The notes under the pieces: model-generated
What the model was told of the DNA's origin: nothing
Seen by the model: only the letters and a program-made list of their open reading frames with translations
Database searches by the model: none
DNA from: Candidatus Micrarchaeota archaeon
GTDB taxonomy: Archaea; Micrarchaeota; Micrarchaeia; Micrarchaeales; CABMGC01
Assembly: GCA_021792095.1 (NCBI GenBank)
Contig: JAJYVH010000001.1
Span: 125,974-189,973 of the forward strand
Direction of reading: 5' to 3'
Length of the DNA stretch: 64,000 bases
Made by a program: the position numbers and the translations under genes
Shown here: one piece after another, positions 34,452-41,574 of the stretch
Layout of the letters: each line of letters opens with the position of its first letter
Numbering within the stretch: the stretch's first letter is position 1

Positions 34452-35357
34452 TCAAGGCGTAGTGTAACCGCTGGTCCACGAGCTCGTGTACACGACGTTG
34501 GTGGGCACGCCGTTGTTCTCGTTGCCAGAGTAGTCGTTGGCGTCGCCGTTGAGCGGCCACCAGCCGACGAGGTTCTGCAGGTCTATGGGCGCGCCGCCTA
34601 TGCCCTCGAGGTAGAGTGCATTGACCTCAGGTTGAGAAAGGGAGGCATTGTAGATTTGCACATTGGCTATGTACCCTTTATAATATCTAGTGGCTGGGCC
34701 ACCGAAGCCCACATAAAGATTTGTTCCTGAAGGTGTTGCAAGCGCAGCACTCAAATAACCAGATGCACTTTGGTTATTTTCATATCCTCCTATTGTGTTA
34801 GATACACCTCCACTATATGTAACAGCAACAAAATTCCATGTATTATTTGTAACTATCAGCCCTGAATTCCAATCATTCCATCCCTCAAAATAAACATTGT
34901 TAGAATCAGGGTAAATTATTAGGCCAACCCCTTCATCTGTTGTGGACTGTCCGTAAAACACTACTTGTTGGTTACCGTTGGCGTTGTTATTGCCACCGAG
35001 TGGATAAACCCAAGCTACTATCGTGCGTGGAGAATCCCCTATGGGTAGCTGTGTAGGTGCAATCACATTGACTGCTCCATTTGCATTAAAAGACGCCACA
35101 TACTCCGGCAGCTCGCCGTTGCAGACGCCCTCGAGGTTCAGATCGAAAGCGGTGCTAGGCCCGTTTGGCCTGAAGACCTGGCAGGCGCCTGGCGGCGCCT
35201 TTGGTGCGAATGTGGCGCCGTTGAACACGCCCAGCTGGAACAGCGCGCCCAGCACCACCGCTATTATCAGTATTGCCCAGCCGTAGGTCATGAGGTACTC
35301 CATCGCCGACTGCGCTTTAGGTGAAGGCTTCTGGCGCTCCGTCGCTGACTGCAGCAT
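34452..35357 (-). CDS. Pilin-like LamG-domain surface protein with class III signal peptide
   Basis: KAQSAMEYLMTYGWAILIIAVV; LamG motifs TIVAWV, WNFVAVTY, GYIANVQIYNASLS; C-terminus shared with 1..663. Confidence 0.88.
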   Translation of the reverse strand: MLQSATERQKPSPKAQSAMEYLMTYGWAILIIAVVLGALFQLGVFNGATFAPKAPPGACQVFRPNGPSTAFDLNLEGVCNGELPEYVASFNANGAVNVIAPTQLPIGDSPRTIVAWVYPLGGNNNANGNQQVVFYGQSTTDEGVGLIIYPDSNNVYFEGWNDWNSGLIVTNNTWNFVAVTYSGGVSNTIGGYENNQSASGYLSAALATPSGTNLYVGFGGPATRYYKGYIANVQIYNASLSQPEVNALYLEGIGGAPIDLQNLVGWWPLNGDANDYSGNENNGVPTNVVYTSSWTSGYTTP

Positions 35358-35473
35358 TCTGTTGACGCGACCACCCCACATTTACTCCATACCCATACGA
35401 GGAAAAGTTAGATAAAACACATCGTCCTGGGAAGTGTTTTAAGGCTTAACAGAGCATTGCGAACGGCCATTCC

Positions 35474-36175
35474 ATGATAATAGGCGGGGGAGACGAGGCG
35501 GGGAGGGGGGCCGTGATCGGCCCGCTGGTGGTGAGCCTCGTATGCGTCGGCAAAGGCAAGGAGAAGAAGCTGGCCGACATAGGGGTAAGGGACTCTAAGC
35601 TGCTCACAAGGCGGAAGCGCGAGTTCCTGTTCGACGAGATAAAAGGCATATGCGAGGAGATAAAGACGTACGTGATAGGGAACGAGGAGATAAACCAGGC
35701 GATGAAGAACGGCATCTCGCTGAACCAGCTCGAGGCCATGCGCTTCGCGCAGCTCGTGGACAGCCTCGAGAGTGATGTGAGCCGCGTATACCTGGACTCG
35801 CCGGACGTCAAACCGGAGAGGTTCGGGGTGCGGGTGTCGCTCTCATCAAACAAGCCGATGCGCGTGGTGGGTGCGAAGGGCAGCGGCAGGAGGGGCGGCA
35901 TAAGCATAATAGCCGAGCACAAGGCGGACTCCAGGTACCCGGTGGTGTCGGGCGCGAGCATAATAGCCAAGGTGACGCGCGACAGGGAGATGGAGCGCAT
36001 AGAGAGCGCGAGCGGCATAGAGATAGGCTCGGGCTATCCCAGCGACAACAACACCATAGAGGCGATAAAGGCCAACCTCTCAACAAGGCGGCTCAACCCG
36101 TACATAAGGGAGTACTGGAAGACGCTCGACAGGATAAAGCAGAGGAAGATGAAGGAATTCGAGGACTTAGTATAG
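35474..36175 (+). CDS. rnhB: Ribonuclease HII
   Basis: GDEAGRG..IGPL, DSKLL, EHKAD, ASIIAKV.RD, GSGYPSD. Confidence 0.97.
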   Translation: MIIGGGDEAGRGAVIGPLVVSLVCVGKGKEKKLADIGVRDSKLLTRRKREFLFDEIKGICEEIKTYVIGNEEINQAMKNGISLNQLEAMRFAQLVDSLESDVSRVYLDSPDVKPERFGVRVSLSSNKPMRVVGAKGSGRRGGISIIAEHKADSRYPVVSGASIIAKVTRDREMERIESASGIEIGSGYPSDNNTIEAIKANLSTRRLNPYIREYWKTLDRIKQRKMKEFEDLV

Positions 36176-36317
36176 CGTATACATAGGTAAAACAAAATTT
36201 ACCGGACTTCCATTTCGCACTCCAGCTGTTAATTTTCCTTTAAGCAGGGTTAAAAAGGCGTATGGCAAATTAGATTCCGCACACCCTGCGCAAAGGCGGG
36301 GCGTTTTTTGGGGCGTT

Positions 36318-39300
36318 GTGGTGGCGGACAAGGAAGAAGCTTTAGATGAAAGTATCTCTGTTGGGAAGGAGCACAGGGAAGAGGTGGGCCTGCCAAAGGA
36401 GACCCTGGACTTCTTCGAAGGCGACGAGATAAGGGCCAGGGTATTCTACGAGAAGTACGCGCTCAAGGCGGAGGACGGCAGCACGCTCGAGAAGCTGCCT
36501 AGCGAGATGTGGAGCAGGATCGCCAGGGAGATTGCGACCGTGGAGGCCGACGACGCGAAGAGGAGCGAGTGGCGCGACAAGTTCGTGTGGCTCATGGACA
36601 ACTTCAGGTTCGTGCCAGGGGGCAGGATAATGTTCGGCGCCGGCGCCATGAGGAGGGCGACTCTGCTTAACTGTTACGTCATCCCGGTCAAGGAGGACTC
36701 GCTGGAGGCCATATTCGACTGGTGCAAGGAGGCCGCGAGGACGTACAGCCTCGGCGGGGGCGTGGGCACAGACATAAGCGTGCTCAGGCCGAGGCACGCG
36801 CCTGTGAACAACAGCGCACTCTTCTCGAGCGGCGCTGTCTCGTTCATGGAGATAATGAGCGAGACGACGCACACCATAGGCCAGAACGGCAGGCGCGGCG
36901 CTCTGATGATAACGATGAGCGTCGACCATCCCGACATACTGGAGTTCATCAGAGTGAAGCAGAACAGGGACAAGGTCAGGTACGCCAACATTAGCGTCAG
37001 GATAACAGACGAGTTCATGCGGGCCGTGGAGAACGACACCGACTTCACGCTCAGGTACGAGAGCAAGAAGGCGGGCAGGATAGAGAAGGTGGTCAGGGCG
37101 AGGCAGCTCTGGAACGAGCTGATACAGGCGGCGAGGGACTGGGCCGAGCCGGGCCTCATCTTCTGGGACACCATGAAGAAATACTCGCCGAGCGAGTACA
37201 ACGGCATGGAGGTCATAACGACAAATCCGTGCACAACTGGAGACACGCTGGTGCAGACCCCTGACGGCTGGAAGAGGGTAGACACGCTGAAAGCGGGAGA
37301 TGAGGTGGTCACCGCGTACGGCACATCAAGGCCTATATCCGAGATATACGTCCACGAGGACCAGGACGTCTACAGCGTTAAGTTCACTGACGGGGGCGAG
37401 GTCAAGGCGACGAAGGGCCACATCTTCCACACGAGACAGGGCAGGGCCGGCAAGGACAGGTACTGGAACAAGTTCTGGAACGCTGAAAAGCGCCTCTCCG
37501 ACCTTAAGGCAGGGGACATGGTGAGGGTCCAGAGGAGCGTCTCGGTGCCGAACAACCCGGTCGAGACGCACGGAGTGCCCGATAGGGAATACGGGTTCAT
37601 GCTGGGCACGCTTCTGGGCGACGGATGCTACACGCCGAAAATAGTCGCCAGGGGCCATGCGAAGATAGCCTCGGACTACAGGGAGAAAGAGTGGAATGAC
37701 ACGATAATGAGGACCTTCGGGCACTACGCATCGGACAACATAAGCGTCACGAACTCGAGCGGCAACGGCTACTACATACTGCTGCAGAAGCAGGGAACGC
37801 AATTCATACTCGACAAGACGCTCCTGCAACCCGCCAAATCCTTCGAGAAGAGGATACCGATGGAGTACATAAACAGCAACGCCGAGCTGCACAAGGGCCT
37901 GATAGACGGCCTGGTTTCGACTGACGGCAACGTGAACATGAATCCGACGAACCCTGCGCTGAGGATATCCTCAACCAGCATAGGCCTGCTTAACGACGTT
38001 AAGCTGATACTCGCATTCCACGGAATTCACGCGAGAATATACAGGACAAGGCGCATTTCGCACAGGTTAGGGGGCAGGACCATAGAGACGAAACACGAGA
38101 GTACAGTCCTGCACATATACGGGAACGACCTTGCGAGGTTCGCATCCATATTCCCGATAAGCCACCCGGAGAAGCAGGAGCGCCTCTATAGGCTGCGCGA
38201 CATGTCCATAGGCACGTCATCCGACTTCTCGAAGATAAAGTCAATAGACTACCTGGGCAAGGAGACGGTCTACGACATCTACGAAAAGGAAACAGACACA
38301 TGGGTAACGAACGGCTATGTGAGCAGGGGCTGCAGCGAGCAGCCGCTACAGGCATACGGGGCATGCGACTTGGGTAGCCTCAACCTTGCTGCTTTCGTGC
38401 TCGACATGTTCACGGACAACGCGAGGCTGGACTGGGCAAGCCTGGAGAAGGCGACGAGGTATGCGACGCGTTTCCTGGACAACGTGCTGGATTACAATAT
38501 TGGCAAGCACCCGCTCAAGGACCAGGAGGAGTCGGTGAGCAAGAGCAGGCGTATTGGCATAGGCGTTACAGGCCTCGCCGACATGCTGGCTATGCTCAAG
38601 ATAAAGTACGACTCCGACGACGCGCTGGCGTTCGTTGACAAGCTCTTCGAGAAGCTGAAGGAAACTGCATACGACGAGAGCACCGAGATAGCAAAGGAGA
38701 AGGGCCCCTTCGCCCTCTTCGACGCGCAGAAGCACCTCTCGATGCCATTCATACAGAACCTGAACAAGGATCTGCGGAAGAAGATAGAGGACAACGGGCT
38801 CCGCAACGTGGCGATACTCACGATACCGCCGGTGGGCAGCGGTTCGGTGCTAGCCGGGACGAGCAGCGGCATAGAGCCCATTTTCGCTTTCAGCTACACG
38901 CGAAGGAGCGAGTCGCTGAGCAAGGAGTACTTCAAGGTGTACCACCCGCTGGTGATGAAGTACATGAGCATGACGTCGCTAAAGGACGACGCCGAACTGC
39001 CCGATTTCTTCGTGCCCGCGCATAAGATAAACGCAGAGTTCAGGGTGCGCATGCAGTCGGTCATGCAGAAGCACGTGGACAGCGCGATCTCGTCCACGGT
39101 CAACCTGCCGGCCAACGCCGCGGTGGAGGACGTGGGCAACATATACATGCTCGCGTGGAAGGGCAAGTGCAAGGGCATAACTGTGTACAGGGAGGGCTCC
39201 AGGGAGGGCGTGCTCATAACAGAGGAGGAGAAGAAGAAAGAGGAGGCTCCGAAGCCGGCGGTGGCGTGGGACAGGGACAAGACCCAGATACTGATAGGCA

Positions 39301-39788
39301 AGACTGTGAAGCTGCACGTGCAGCAGGACTCGCTGTACGTGACCGCCAACATAGACTCGGAGGGCAACGTCCGCGAGGTGTTCATCAACATGGGCAAGAG
39401 CGGCGGCCAGGAGAAGAGCTACACAGAGGCGATAGGCAGGCTGATAAGCAAGTACCTGCAGCTCAACGGCGACGTCAACGGCGTCATATCCAGCCTGAAG
39501 GGCATAAAGTCCAACGACGCGATAGCGTGGGACAGGGGCATAAAGATGTACAGCGTACCCGACGCCATAGCCAAGGCGCTCGAGATAGTGGTGGGCACTG
39601 CGAACTTCAAGGCGTTCCCGCTCAACGCTCAGGACGGGAAGGAGCAGGGCTCCCAGATGGGCGTCCAGCAGCAGGTCGCAGACACCGCCATAAAGCCGGA
39701 GATGTGCCCTGAGTGCAACGAAATGACGCTTGTTCACGAGAGCGGATGCTACACGTGCAAGAACTGCGGCTACACCAAGTGCGCCTGA
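36318..39788 (+). CDS. nrdJ: Class II (AdoCbl-dependent) ribonucleotide reductase containing an intein
   Basis: FVPGGRI, LLNCYV, GGGVG, RRGALM, NISV, EPG, TNP|C...|CSEQPL, CDLGSLNL, IPPVGS, TSSGIEP, KGITVYR, C-terminal CPEC...C..CG. Confidence 0.96.
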   Translation: MVADKEEALDESISVGKEHREEVGLPKETLDFFEGDEIRARVFYEKYALKAEDGSTLEKLPSEMWSRIAREIATVEADDAKRSEWRDKFVWLMDNFRFVPGGRIMFGAGAMRRATLLNCYVIPVKEDSLEAIFDWCKEAARTYSLGGGVGTDISVLRPRHAPVNNSALFSSGAVSFMEIMSETTHTIGQNGRRGALMITMSVDHPDILEFIRVKQNRDKVRYANISVRITDEFMRAVENDTDFTLRYESKKAGRIEKVVRARQLWNELIQAARDWAEPGLIFWDTMKKYSPSEYNGMEVITTNPCTTGDTLVQTPDGWKRVDTLKAGDEVVTAYGTSRPISEIYVHEDQDVYSVKFTDGGEVKATKGHIFHTRQGRAGKDRYWNKFWNAEKRLSDLKAGDMVRVQRSVSVPNNPVETHGVPDREYGFMLGTLLGDGCYTPKIVARGHAKIASDYREKEWNDTIMRTFGHYASDNISVTNSSGNGYYILLQKQGTQFILDKTLLQPAKSFEKRIPMEYINSNAELHKGLIDGLVSTDGNVNMNPTNPALRISSTSIGLLNDVKLILAFHGIHARIYRTRRISHRLGGRTIETKHESTVLHIYGNDLARFASIFPISHPEKQERLYRLRDMSIGTSSDFSKIKSIDYLGKETVYDIYEKETDTWVTNGYVSRGCSEQPLQAYGACDLGSLNLAAFVLDMFTDNARLDWASLEKATRYATRFLDNVLDYNIGKHPLKDQEESVSKSRRIGIGVTGLADMLAMLKIKYDSDDALAFVDKLFEKLKETAYDESTEIAKEKGPFALFDAQKHLSMPFIQNLNKDLRKKIEDNGLRNVAILTIPPVGSGSVLAGTSSGIEPIFAFSYTRRSESLSKEYFKVYHPLVMKYMSMTSLKDDAELPDFFVPAHKINAEFRVRMQSVMQKHVDSAISSTVNLPANAAVEDVGNIYMLAWKGKCKGITVYREGSREGVLITEEEKKKEEAPKPAVAWDRDKTQILIGKTVKLHVQQDSLYVTANIDSEGNVREVFINMGKSGGQEKSYTEAIGRLISKYLQLNGDVNGVISSLKGIKSNDAIAWDRGIKMYSVPDAIAKALEIVVGTANFKAFPLNAQDGKEQGSQMGVQQQVADTAIKPEMCPECNEMTLVHESGCYTCKNCGYTKCA
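37230..38330 (+). mobile_element. Intein (367 aa) with LAGLIDADG endonuclease in NrdJ; atypical C-terminus S-R-G|C
   Basis: Block A CTTGDTLVQTPDG, block B ATKGHIF, LAGLIDADG motifs LGTLLGDG and LIDGLVSTDG, block F ETVYDI, block G WVTNGYVSRG/C; removal restores TTNP-CSEQPL. Confidence 0.92.
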
Positions 39789-39841
39789 CGCCGCTTGCGA
39801 TGGGACGCGCGCCGAGCAGACTGGCTGGCCTATCCGGACGG

Positions 39842-40330
39842 CTACCCGCTTACCCTTGCGGCAAGCTGGCCGACTGCGGTCTGCGAGAAGCCTGTGTACG
39901 TGTTGGTGTAGTTTATCAGCAGGTAGCCCTGGAACTCCTGGCCTGGCGAAGCGGAGTACTGGCTGTTGCCCGCCCAGCATTGCGCGCTGAACGTGTAGTT
40001 GGAGCCTATGAGCATGCTTATCTGGTTGCTAGGCGGATTGCTGGGCACGTACATGTGCGCCGCGCTCGTGTTGGTGTTGCAGCCGTAGGCGGTTATGTTT
40101 ATGGTGGAGAGCGTCGCCTGCTCCAGGTTTATCGTGACCACGCCGGAGCTGGCCAGCTCTATGCTGGTGCAGGAGAAGCCGGCCGGCAACACGCACTCAT
40201 TACCGAGCACGCTGCCCGGGCTGAACACGCCGAGCGCGAAGAGGGCTGCGAGCGCGACTGCTATCACCAGTATGGCCCAGCCGTAGGTCACCAGGTACTC
40301 CATGGCAGACTGCTGCCTGAGCTGTCGCAT
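39842..40330 (-). CDS. Pilin-like protein with class III signal peptide
   Basis: RQQSAMEYLVTYGWAILVIAV, nearly the same N-terminus as 34452..35357 but with a short non-LamG C-domain. Confidence 0.85.
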   Translation of the reverse strand: MRQLRQQSAMEYLVTYGWAILVIAVALAALFALGVFSPGSVLGNECVLPAGFSCTSIELASSGVVTINLEQATLSTINITAYGCNTNTSAAHMYVPSNPPSNQISMLIGSNYTFSAQCWAGNSQYSASPGQEFQGYLLINYTNTYTGFSQTAVGQLAARVSG

Positions 40331-41118: not shown

Positions 41119-41574
41119 ATGCCGTTCAAGTACACGTTCGACGACAACAAGTGCATACAGTGCGGCATATGCGGCGACGTGTGCCCTGTCAACGCGCTGG
41201 ATTTCACCAGGCCGAGGCACAAGAACATAGAGGACGCGAGGGGCCAGCCGCCGTCCACTGAAGACATGACCGAGTATCCGATACAGGTAGACAGGTGCAT
41301 AGGCTGCATGATCTGCCCCACCGAGTGCCCGGTGTCGTGCATAGAGATAGTGCAGGTGCCGAGGGAGCCGAGGTATGCGCCCAAGCAGGGACCGATGCTC
41401 ACCGAGGAGCCAACGAAGGACGAATTCTCGCTTTCCAAGTACACCAAGGTTAGGCCCGCCAAGGCGAAGGTCAAGGACCCGTGGGGCAACGAATGGCATT
41501 ACATACCGCACACCGGCCCGAGAGCCACGAAAAGGCCTTCCGAAGTGTGGGAGAAGCACGAGGAGATGGATTGA
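41119..41574 (+). CDS. 2[4Fe-4S] dicluster ferredoxin-like protein
   Basis: CIQCGICGDVCP and CIGCMICPTECP. Confidence 0.92.
   Translation: MPFKYTFDDNKCIQCGICGDVCPVNALDFTRPRHKNIEDARGQPPSTEDMTEYPIQVDRCIGCMICPTECPVSCIEIVQVPREPRYAPKQGPMLTEEPTKDEFSLSKYTKVRPAKAKVKDPWGNEWHYIPHTGPRATKRPSEVWEKHEEMD

Follow-up and report, generated by a model that had tools for sequence, protein, structure and literature searches.

A glycine-terminal intein at the active-site cysteine of a micrarchaeal ribonucleotide reductase, and the clade to which it belongs

The interrupted nrdJ gene

We describe an intein ending in glycine, found in a 64,000-nucleotide stretch of DNA from a Candidatus Micrarchaeota archaeon (the window; positions 125,974 to 189,973 of contig JAJYVH010000001.1, assembly GCA_021792095.1). 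It interrupts nrdJ, which encodes a class II, B12-dependent ribonucleotide reductase (RNR), at the catalytic cysteine. It is probably a functional, horizontally mobile splicing element from a large, unremarked clade of Gly-ending inteins of the RNR active site, in which the third splicing step would depend on an invariant aspartate, Asp356. Coordinates are those of the window; intein residues are numbered from the first cysteine (Cys1) or backward from the last residue (-1), and a slash marks a splice junction. Inteins are called Gly-, Asp-, Asn- or Gln-type after their terminal residue, and counts out of 184 refer to the pooled Gly-type inteins described below. The features of the locus are as follows.

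36318..39788, + strand: nrdJ precursor open reading frame (ORF), class II B12-dependent RNR with TSCPD domain and Cys-rich C-terminal tail; 1156 aa including the intein, start codon predicted
36318..37229, + strand: N-extein, ending ...ITTNP; corresponds to residues 1-306 of uninterrupted orthologs
37230..38330, + strand: intein with Hint splicing domain, LAGLIDADG homing endonuclease and S-R-G end; 367 aa
37230..37232, + strand: Cys1 (TGC), N-terminal nucleophile; kept in 184/184
37410..37430, + strand: block B, T61-K-G-H64-I-F-H67; T61 and H64 canonical, H67 specific to the Gly-type clade
37593..37628, + strand: LAGLIDADG motif 1 (GFMLGTLLGDGC), G126..G130-D131-G132; D131 kept in 175/184
37887..37931, + strand: LAGLIDADG motif 2 (..KGLIDGLVSTDGN), G223..D226-G227..D232-G233; D232 kept in 175/184
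38268..38276, + strand: block F V347-Y348-D349, with the canonical Asp at F:4; Asp in 184/184
38295..38303, + strand: D356-T357-W358 at the place of canonical H-S-F (block F position 13, F:13); Asp in 184/184, candidate catalytic carboxylate
38316..38330, + strand: block G Y363-V-S-R366-G367, non-canonical C-terminus; Gly in 184/184
38331..38333, + strand: Cys+1 (TGC), C-extein nucleophile and Cys of the RNR N-x-C-x-E motif, placed by uninterrupted orthologs; we take it to be the thiyl-radical Cys of the enzyme
38331..39788, + strand: C-extein (CSEQPLQAYGACDLG...), stop codon included, placed by uninterrupted orthologs

The precursor matches the Pfam models Ribonuc_red_lgC (362 bits), Ribonuc_red_lgN and TSCPD. 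It belongs to the NrdJ class by the curated NCBIfam model NrdJ_Z (TIGR02504), which scores 547.6 bits, above the cut-off of 399.95, and by the N-P-C-x-E motif, which is restored as N-P-C-S-E when the insert, exactly 367 codons at the catalytic Cys, is removed. The insert occupies precursor residues 305-671, at the site TTNP/C, with the C-terminal end ...TDTWVTNGYVSRG/CSEQPL. Positions 37230-38333 translate as CTTGDTLVQT...ETVYDIYEKETDTWVTNGYVSRG, then C, and the codons at 38322-38333 are AGC AGG GGC TGC. An in-frame insert of 367 aa at the NrdJ catalytic Cys, with Cys1, block B, two LAGLIDADG motifs and VYD, was what the initial annotation had reported from the letters, and the translation and the orthologs bear it out. 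Its start at 37230 stands; its end at 38333 takes in Cys+1 (38331-38333), and the intein proper ends at 38330.

The insert, together with 13 residues of flank at either end, was modeled with AlphaFold2 (AF2) from a 66-row alignment, giving a mean pLDDT of 91.5. The best PDB matches found with this model by Foldseek are the endonuclease-bearing inteins TliVMA, PI-SceI and PI-PfuI (E 1e-15 to 1e-18). LAGLIDADG_3 scores 36.5 bits (cut-off 22.5). A sequence search of the PDB gave weak mini-intein matches only, the best being gp41-1 (E 3e-4, N-terminal part only).

Uninterrupted NrdJ reads TTNPCSEQPLQ in four related genomes (G003, G174, G202, G041), three of them congeneric and the other from the same family, with exteins 73-87% identical to those of the window. 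These vacant alleles fix the boundaries of the insert, save for a one-residue ambiguity between Cys1 and Cys+1. Placing the insert one residue later, from residue 2 (V or T) through the second Cys, would leave the product unchanged. Residue 2 varies, however, among V, L, I, T, C and M, and CxxGDTLV is a standard block A, so that the intein extends from Cys1 to Gly.

Logan contigs from four runs of two studies, which may include the source sample, cover the whole insert over 36900-38700 with zero letter differences and zero indels, in line with the earlier view that one sequencing error cannot explain the ending. Contigs of three of the four runs (X3, X5, X7) also hold an intein-free nrdJ allele, in which the N-extein runs to the Cys codon and continues as SEQPLQAYGA; these contigs, aligned at 37189..37232 and 38336..38369, show 4 differences in 44 nt. 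This is a related strain's allele in the same communities, and in some runs it is covered as deeply as the intein-bearing allele or more deeply (40 versus 7.9 in X5, for example). Occupied and vacant homing sites thus coexist in the community.

RNR inteins ending in glycine

A search of 5.8 billion proteins with the intein region gave 281 hits. All 120 homologs among the matches listed (lengths 330-376) end in SRG, NRG, NQG or QQG before C[GS]E; the HN that relatives might have carried is absent from them, all ending in [RQ]G/C. With HMMER, run in full over 1.84 billion cluster representatives, 4522 hits reached E ≤1e-3, 69 of them E ≤1e-30. Fetched proteins and 19 loci were pooled into a set of 281 sequences, of which 231 with both intein ends were kept and 50 left out; P0002, the protein of the window itself, is part of the pool, and some of the loci repeat proteins already listed. 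By terminal residue, the 231 inteins comprise 184 with Gly, 36 with Asn, 9 with Asp and 2 with Gln.

The C-terminal blocks of Asn-, Asp- and Gly-type inteins at the RNR site are identical in length, which makes positions directly comparable across the types. Position -12 (F:13) is His in 21 of 26 Asn- and Gln-type inteins, Leu or Phe in all nine of the Asp-type, and Asp in the Gly-type (183/184 when counted by offset, 184/184 by alignment). Positions -11 and -10 are S-F in the Asn-type and T-W in both the Asp-type and the Gly-type, where the Trp is found in 179-180 of 184. Position -3 is V or I in the Asn-type, S in the Asp-type and S, Q or N in the Gly-type; position -2 is His in the Asn-type, L, F or Y in the Asp-type, and R (157), Q (20), V (5) or L (2) in the Gly-type. 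The terminal residue itself is Asn, Asp or Gly, the last in 184/184. Two residues near block B also mark the clade: His67, three residues past the block B His, is kept in 159/184 (L or Y in the Asn-type, K or R in the Asp-type), and Arg99 in 164/184. The residues that serve the first two splicing steps are retained, with C1, H64, D349 and C+1 each in 184/184 and position 61 either Thr (168) or Ser (16).

The same-site canonical inteins, with equal block length and the ending T-H-S-F...V-H-N/C, show that D-T-W does stand at the usual H-x-F place, and that the Asn-cyclization apparatus is wholly absent, with Gly at the end, Arg before it and Asp at F:13. The initial annotation had this much right and had treated the F:13 change as a loss only; the His is indeed gone, but an invariant Asp has taken its place, where the Asp-terminal neighbors carry Leu or Phe. 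The conservation of D-T-W and R-G across genomes, which it had proposed to test, is complete for the Asp and the Gly (each 184/184), while Arg is found in 157/184.

For the tree, the 12 of 231 inteins lying outside the RNR NP/C..E site were dropped, the remaining 219 were thinned to 105 representatives at <62% identity, and the last 13 residues were cut from every row, so that the trait columns had no influence. The unrooted tree is split with support 100 into one group of 13 Asn-, 2 Gln- and 3 Asp-type inteins and another of 81 Gly- and 6 Asp-type. Seventy-eight Gly-type members form one clade (support 96). A single origin of the Gly end fits the tree with one change, on a branch of support 39. 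Asp-type inteins lie on both sides of the central branch, as expected of an intermediate state.

Three other Gly-type inteins (P0171, P0184, P0201) branch apart from the main clade, at an unresolved three-way split that also involves the Asp-type group. They read T-D-E-W-N-V-N-G-Y-[VI]-Q-Q-G/C, with the variant Y-D-E-W-N-A-Q-G-Y-I-S-Q-G/C in P0184, and may represent either an independent origin of the Gly end or an early side branch.

One genome per prokaryote species was scanned with a degenerate DNA pattern for D-T-W-x3-G-x-V-x2-G-C-x-E. The scan found at least 119 stretches, 117 of them true RNR intein ends, which come from about 20 bacterial and archaeal phyla and all lie in metagenome-derived records. 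Chloroflexota account for 56 of the at least 117 true stretches; other bacterial hosts are Rokubacteria, Methylomirabilota, Patescibacteria groups, Pseudomonadota, Acidobacteriota, Nitrospinota, Gemmatimonadota, Poribacteria and Caldisericota, and the archaeal hosts are Woesearchaeota, Micrarchaeota, Nanoarchaeota, Aenigmatarchaeota, Halobacteriales, Thermoplasmata and Thaumarchaeota. In the host phylum, 22 of 301 genomes have any homolog of the intein and only three, this one included, are of the Gly-type; 17 other loci of the phylum (L005-L021) carry canonical T-H-S-F...[HSA]-N/C inteins at the same site. The distribution of the Gly-type is sporadic and transfer-like, and horizontal mobility forms part of the explanation that we favor.

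In IMG/VR, 16 of 17 stretches matching the pattern are true Gly-type RNR intein ends. Two of these inteins (L149, L154) lie on contigs of 340,392 and 179,181 bp classed as viral, which may be either jumbo phages or misclassified cellular DNA. Among named phages 123 records match, all at <60% identity, with SPbeta-type bnrdE inteins the best (26%); judged by identity alone, no record among the 30 listed approaches the Gly-type family. Many Gly-type RNRs (P0011, P0012, P0052, P0112, P0123, P0164 and others) are 1400-2400 aa long and contain further intein-type domains, so that the Gly-type coexists with other inteins in one gene. The source records call Gly-type proteins 'hypothetical' or 'LAGLIDADG endonuclease', and motif-based finders that require a terminal Asn will miss the family.

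Codons were counted in the first 80 genome loci, one of which (L064) probably matched by chance. The Gly at the end is encoded by GGA (23), GGC (23), GGG (23) and GGT (11). At the penultimate position, which was left free in the pattern, Arg is found in 73 of 80, with each of its six codons occurring 10-13 times; Ser at -3 is encoded by TCN as well as by AGC, and Asp at -12 is GAT in 43 and GAC in 37. The amino acids of the ending are held while their codons are randomized, that is, synonymous variation is saturated. Among Micrarchaeota copies the intein has pN of 0.17-0.20 and pS of 0.69-0.92 (nonsynonymous and synonymous differences, covering 7 of 15 pairs). The Gly-type intein is under purifying selection. 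The endonuclease domain is kept in all 120 homologs among the matches listed, and the catalytic Asp of both LAGLIDADG motifs in 175/184, as fits an element that is still homing.

Probable removal of the intein and a proposed resolution of the branched intermediate

A 367-residue insert at the tip of the radical-Cys finger loop is incompatible with a working RNR, so that its removal is required. The genome is a single contig of 771,545 bp, 93% complete, in which the interrupted nrdJ is the sole PF02867 hit and in which NrdD and NrdB searches gave no hit. Five other Gly-type hosts (four Chloroflexota of 4.9-10.4 Mb and one archaeon of 1.0 Mb) were searched for PF02867 and NrdD: each has a single PF02867 gene with the Gly-type motif inside it, and none has NrdD. 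The second RNR that the initial annotation proposed to look for is thus found neither here nor in those hosts, which makes an inactive gene unlikely. Of its two proposals, another splicing route or an inactive or conditionally active gene, the former is the likelier.

We consider autocatalytic splicing with a third step other than cyclization highly probable, giving roughly half of that expectation to a route centered on Asp356 and a quarter to an N-S acyl shift at Gly/Cys+1. Step 1, the N-S acyl shift at Pro/Cys1, and step 2, transfer of the N-extein to the Cys+1 thiol, would presumably be canonical, as Cys1, the block B Thr and His, the F:4 Asp and Cys+1 are all conserved. Release of the intein from Cys+1 in step 3 cannot come from cyclization of the terminal residue, since Gly has no side chain, and would depend on Asp356. 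According to passages of a 2014 review in the Journal of Biological Chemistry, the His at F:13 deprotonates the terminal Asn and stabilizes the tetrahedral intermediate (Mills, Johnson and Perler, 2014), which places F:13 next to the scissile bond; the same passages state that neither assisting His is obligatory in all inteins. DSSP assigns strands T357-T360 and Y363-R366 in the AF2 model, with N361-G362 as the turn between them. The register of this predicted hairpin would pair 360 with 363 and 357 with 366, and by extension would set D356 opposite G367. From such a cross-strand position the Asp356 carboxylate could fill the space left by Gly, where the Asn or Asp side chain sits in other inteins. 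It might then attack the Gly367 carbonyl to form a transient anhydride, an in-trans version of terminal-Asp cyclization, or might act as general base to activate water, with Arg366 and the clade-specific His67 as possible helpers. Taking this relocated carboxylate and a second N-S acyl shift together, we lean slightly toward a new mechanistic class, in which the branched intermediate is resolved at Gly/Cys without a cyclizable terminal residue.

Three other residues were considered for the cleavage. Cyclization of Asn361 (T-N-G) was rejected: the position is E (85), N (54), D (28) or S (13) in the Gly-type, lies in the N-G hairpin turn, invariant in all end types, and is followed by a Gly that is no nucleophile. 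Thr357 is weakened as a cleaving nucleophile by E, S, N or D in 11-12 of 184, and Ser365 by Q or N in 51 of 184.

Several points weigh against splicing through Asp356. We infer the splicing of every member from sole-RNR status and conservation; the hosts are all metagenome-assembled or uncultured, with a working RNR deduced from gene content, and DPANN archaea such as this host could in principle scavenge deoxynucleotides. The contact between D356 and G367 comes from the strand register of the model. Attack by a carboxylate on the backbone amide of another residue is chemically demanding and has little intein precedent. Arg366 is not essential, since Q, V, L, K or M stands there in a minority of sequences. 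The pairing of D(-12) with G(-1) may have a single origin, and would then reflect retention and not repeated co-evolution; the direction from Asp-type to Gly-type cannot be read from an unrooted tree. Pfam Hint models fall under their cut-offs (PF14890 26.0 versus 35.8; PF13403 26.0 versus 28.4). The NCBIfam N-terminal intein model matches the precursor weakly, and intein_Cterm gives no match to it at E up to 1, a miss that fits the non-standard C-terminus.

The strongest of the rival explanations, though a tentative one, is the route suggested in the initial annotation, an N-to-S acyl shift at the Gly/Cys+1 bond itself. The freed Cys+1 amine would take the N-extein from the Cys1 thioester, and the Gly thioester would be hydrolyzed or else caught by Cys1, in which case the intein would leave as a head-to-tail circle; Asp356, His67 and Arg366 could act in this shift as base or oxyanion hole. 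The autoprocessing sites of N-terminal nucleophile (Ntn) hydrolases and pyruvoyl enzymes regularly have Gly before the nucleophile, and here that Gly is invariant, as at the Hedgehog cleavage site. The clade's own H67 and R99 near block B could form a second acyl-shift site. In the canonical order, however, acylation of the Cys+1 thiol precedes cleavage of the C-terminal bond, so that the order of steps would have to change. The route is without precedent among inteins, and it leaves unexplained why -12 is Leu or Phe in Asp-terminal inteins and Asp in Gly-terminal ones, which looks like a relocated carboxylate.

If a host protease or a small-molecule nucleophile cut the C-terminal bond, the intein would not be fully autocatalytic. 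The absence of the usual autocatalytic residues speaks for such outside help, but we think it improbable: the ending is found sporadically, in a transfer-like manner, in about 20 bacterial and archaeal phyla and on viral contigs, and a dedicated host factor would need to be universal.

Still less likely is a splicing-dead intein, with the RNR inactive or imported deoxynucleotides in use and the ending serving the endonuclease or folding only. The indirect case for splicing of Gly-type members leaves room for this, as does the host, a reduced DPANN-type archaeon of 771 kb. The 1156-aa frame is nevertheless intact with well-conserved exteins, the motif persists in more than 100 species despite saturated synonymous change, and in the four Chloroflexota genomes the interrupted gene is the only detectable RNR. 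The residues of steps 1 and 2, needless in a dead intein, are invariant.

An artefact at the last codons (sequencing or assembly error) and removal of an intron at the RNA level, the latter also raised in the initial annotation, found no supporting point and can be set aside, as the four runs of two studies agree without a difference, the same ending recurs in hundreds of independent assemblies, a search of 36000-40000 against Rfam gave no intron family at E ≤1, and the insert is an in-frame, confidently folded Hint and LAGLIDADG protein.

The gene neighborhood offers some side observations. The ORFs flanking nrdJ at 34452..35381 and 39842..40330 (both - strand) have ...AMEYL[MV]TYGWAILIIAV near their starts, a sequence reminiscent of the class III signal peptides on type IV pilin-like proteins of archaea. 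The ORF at 35474..36175 (+ strand, 233 aa) starts MIIGGGDEAGRGAVIGPLVV and may encode an RNase HII, which it resembles. That at 41119..41574 (+ strand, 151 aa) has two CxxCxxCxxxCP motifs, which make it look like a 2x[4Fe-4S] ferredoxin-type protein. At the C-terminus of NrdJ itself (39700..39788), the tail CPECN...CYTCKNCGYTKCA follows TSCPD; it is zinc-ribbon-like and is kept in the alignment consensus.

Comparison with known inteins and Hint proteins

By its architecture, site, fold and five defining residues, as read from the sequence, the element is an intein, without a cyclizable C-terminal residue and without both assisting His. Like class 1 inteins it is an in-frame insert absent from orthologs, with the Hint fold, Cys1 and Cys+1, the block B T-x-x-H and the F:4 Asp; it differs from them in ending with Gly and in having Arg at G:6 and Asp at F:13 for the assisting His. 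The canonical class 1 LAGLIDADG inteins at the RNR thiyl-Cys share with the Gly-type the site TNP/C.../C[GS]E, the architecture, the length class, Cys1, T-x-x-H, V-Y-D, the N-G turn and the length of the C-terminal block. They differ in the ending, T-H-S-F...V-H-N/C as against [ST]-D-T-W...[SNQ]-[RQ]-G/C, and lie across the split of support 100.

All intein classes described so far complete splicing through cyclization of the terminal residue, which is usually Asn. In the available part of the 2014 review, only Asn, Gln, Asp and Glu are given as C-terminal residues, and inteins with an atypical C-terminal Asp, Gln or Glu are said to lack the terminal Asn and yet to splice (Mills, Johnson and Perler, 2014). 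A Gly-terminal intein is not described in the portions at hand of PMC4031507, PMC3653736, PMC4760082, PMC3207474, PMC4071816, PMC7765530 and bioRxiv 10.1101/2025.01.02.630785, and no description was found in a search of full-text literature, outside which lie most subscription journals, InBase and supplements. Supplementary tables in PMC4760082, as far as its accessible text indicates, list 211 bacterial RNR inteins and may hold Gly-type members without comment.

A Gly ending conserved under selection in an essential enzyme points to a mode of completing protein splicing that has not been described. If so, it would be the first intein C-terminal cleavage chemistry without cyclization of Asn, Gln, Asp or Glu, already present in about 20 phyla and in viruses. 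It would show a catalytic group migrating within a fold, with the pairs His/Asn, Leu/Asp and Asp/Gly at -12/-1 as natural intermediates. Once worked out, a new self-cleavage chemistry at Gly-Cys, leaving a native Gly C-terminus or possibly a cyclic protein, would be attractive for protein engineering.

The closest known systems are the canonical inteins at this site and the inteins with a terminal Asp or Gln. Amitai, Dassa and Pietrokovski reportedly described inteins with an atypical C-terminal residue in 2004, the Asp-terminal example being the RNR intein Chy RIR1. The nine Asp-terminal inteins that we found share the site (T-L-T-W...S-[LFY]-D/C), and six of them group with the Gly-type clade. 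Asp, Gln and Glu ends can still cyclize onto their own backbone carbonyl, which Gly, lacking a side chain, cannot do; having no terminal Asp, the Gly-type stands outside the Asp-terminal RNR class and is related to it by phylogenetic neighborhood only.

Bacterial intein-like (BIL) domains are found in variable, often secreted proteins and commonly lack the +1 nucleophile; the Gly-type insert lies at the RNR catalytic Cys with an invariant Cys+1, and is no BIL domain. Hedgehog and Hog proteins share the Hint fold, a Gly-Cys scissile bond and thioester chemistry, but, in the accounts of them at hand, their Gly/Cys is at the N-terminal edge of Hint, an adduct-recognition region is present, cholesterol resolves the thioester, and no exteins are ligated. 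The Gly-type intein has Pro/Cys at its N-terminal junction and Gly/Cys at its C-terminal one, and its product must be a ligated enzyme. In class 3 inteins, as set out in the accessible text of their description, a Cys at F:4 replaces the absent N-terminal nucleophile (Tori et al., 2010). The Gly-type differs from these in having Cys1 and an Asp at F:4 and in lacking the W-C-T triplet pattern, its changes being at F:13 and the C-terminal residue; yet in having a block F residue take over the job of a terminal residue, class 3 inteins offer the nearest conceptual precedent for the role that Asp356 would play.

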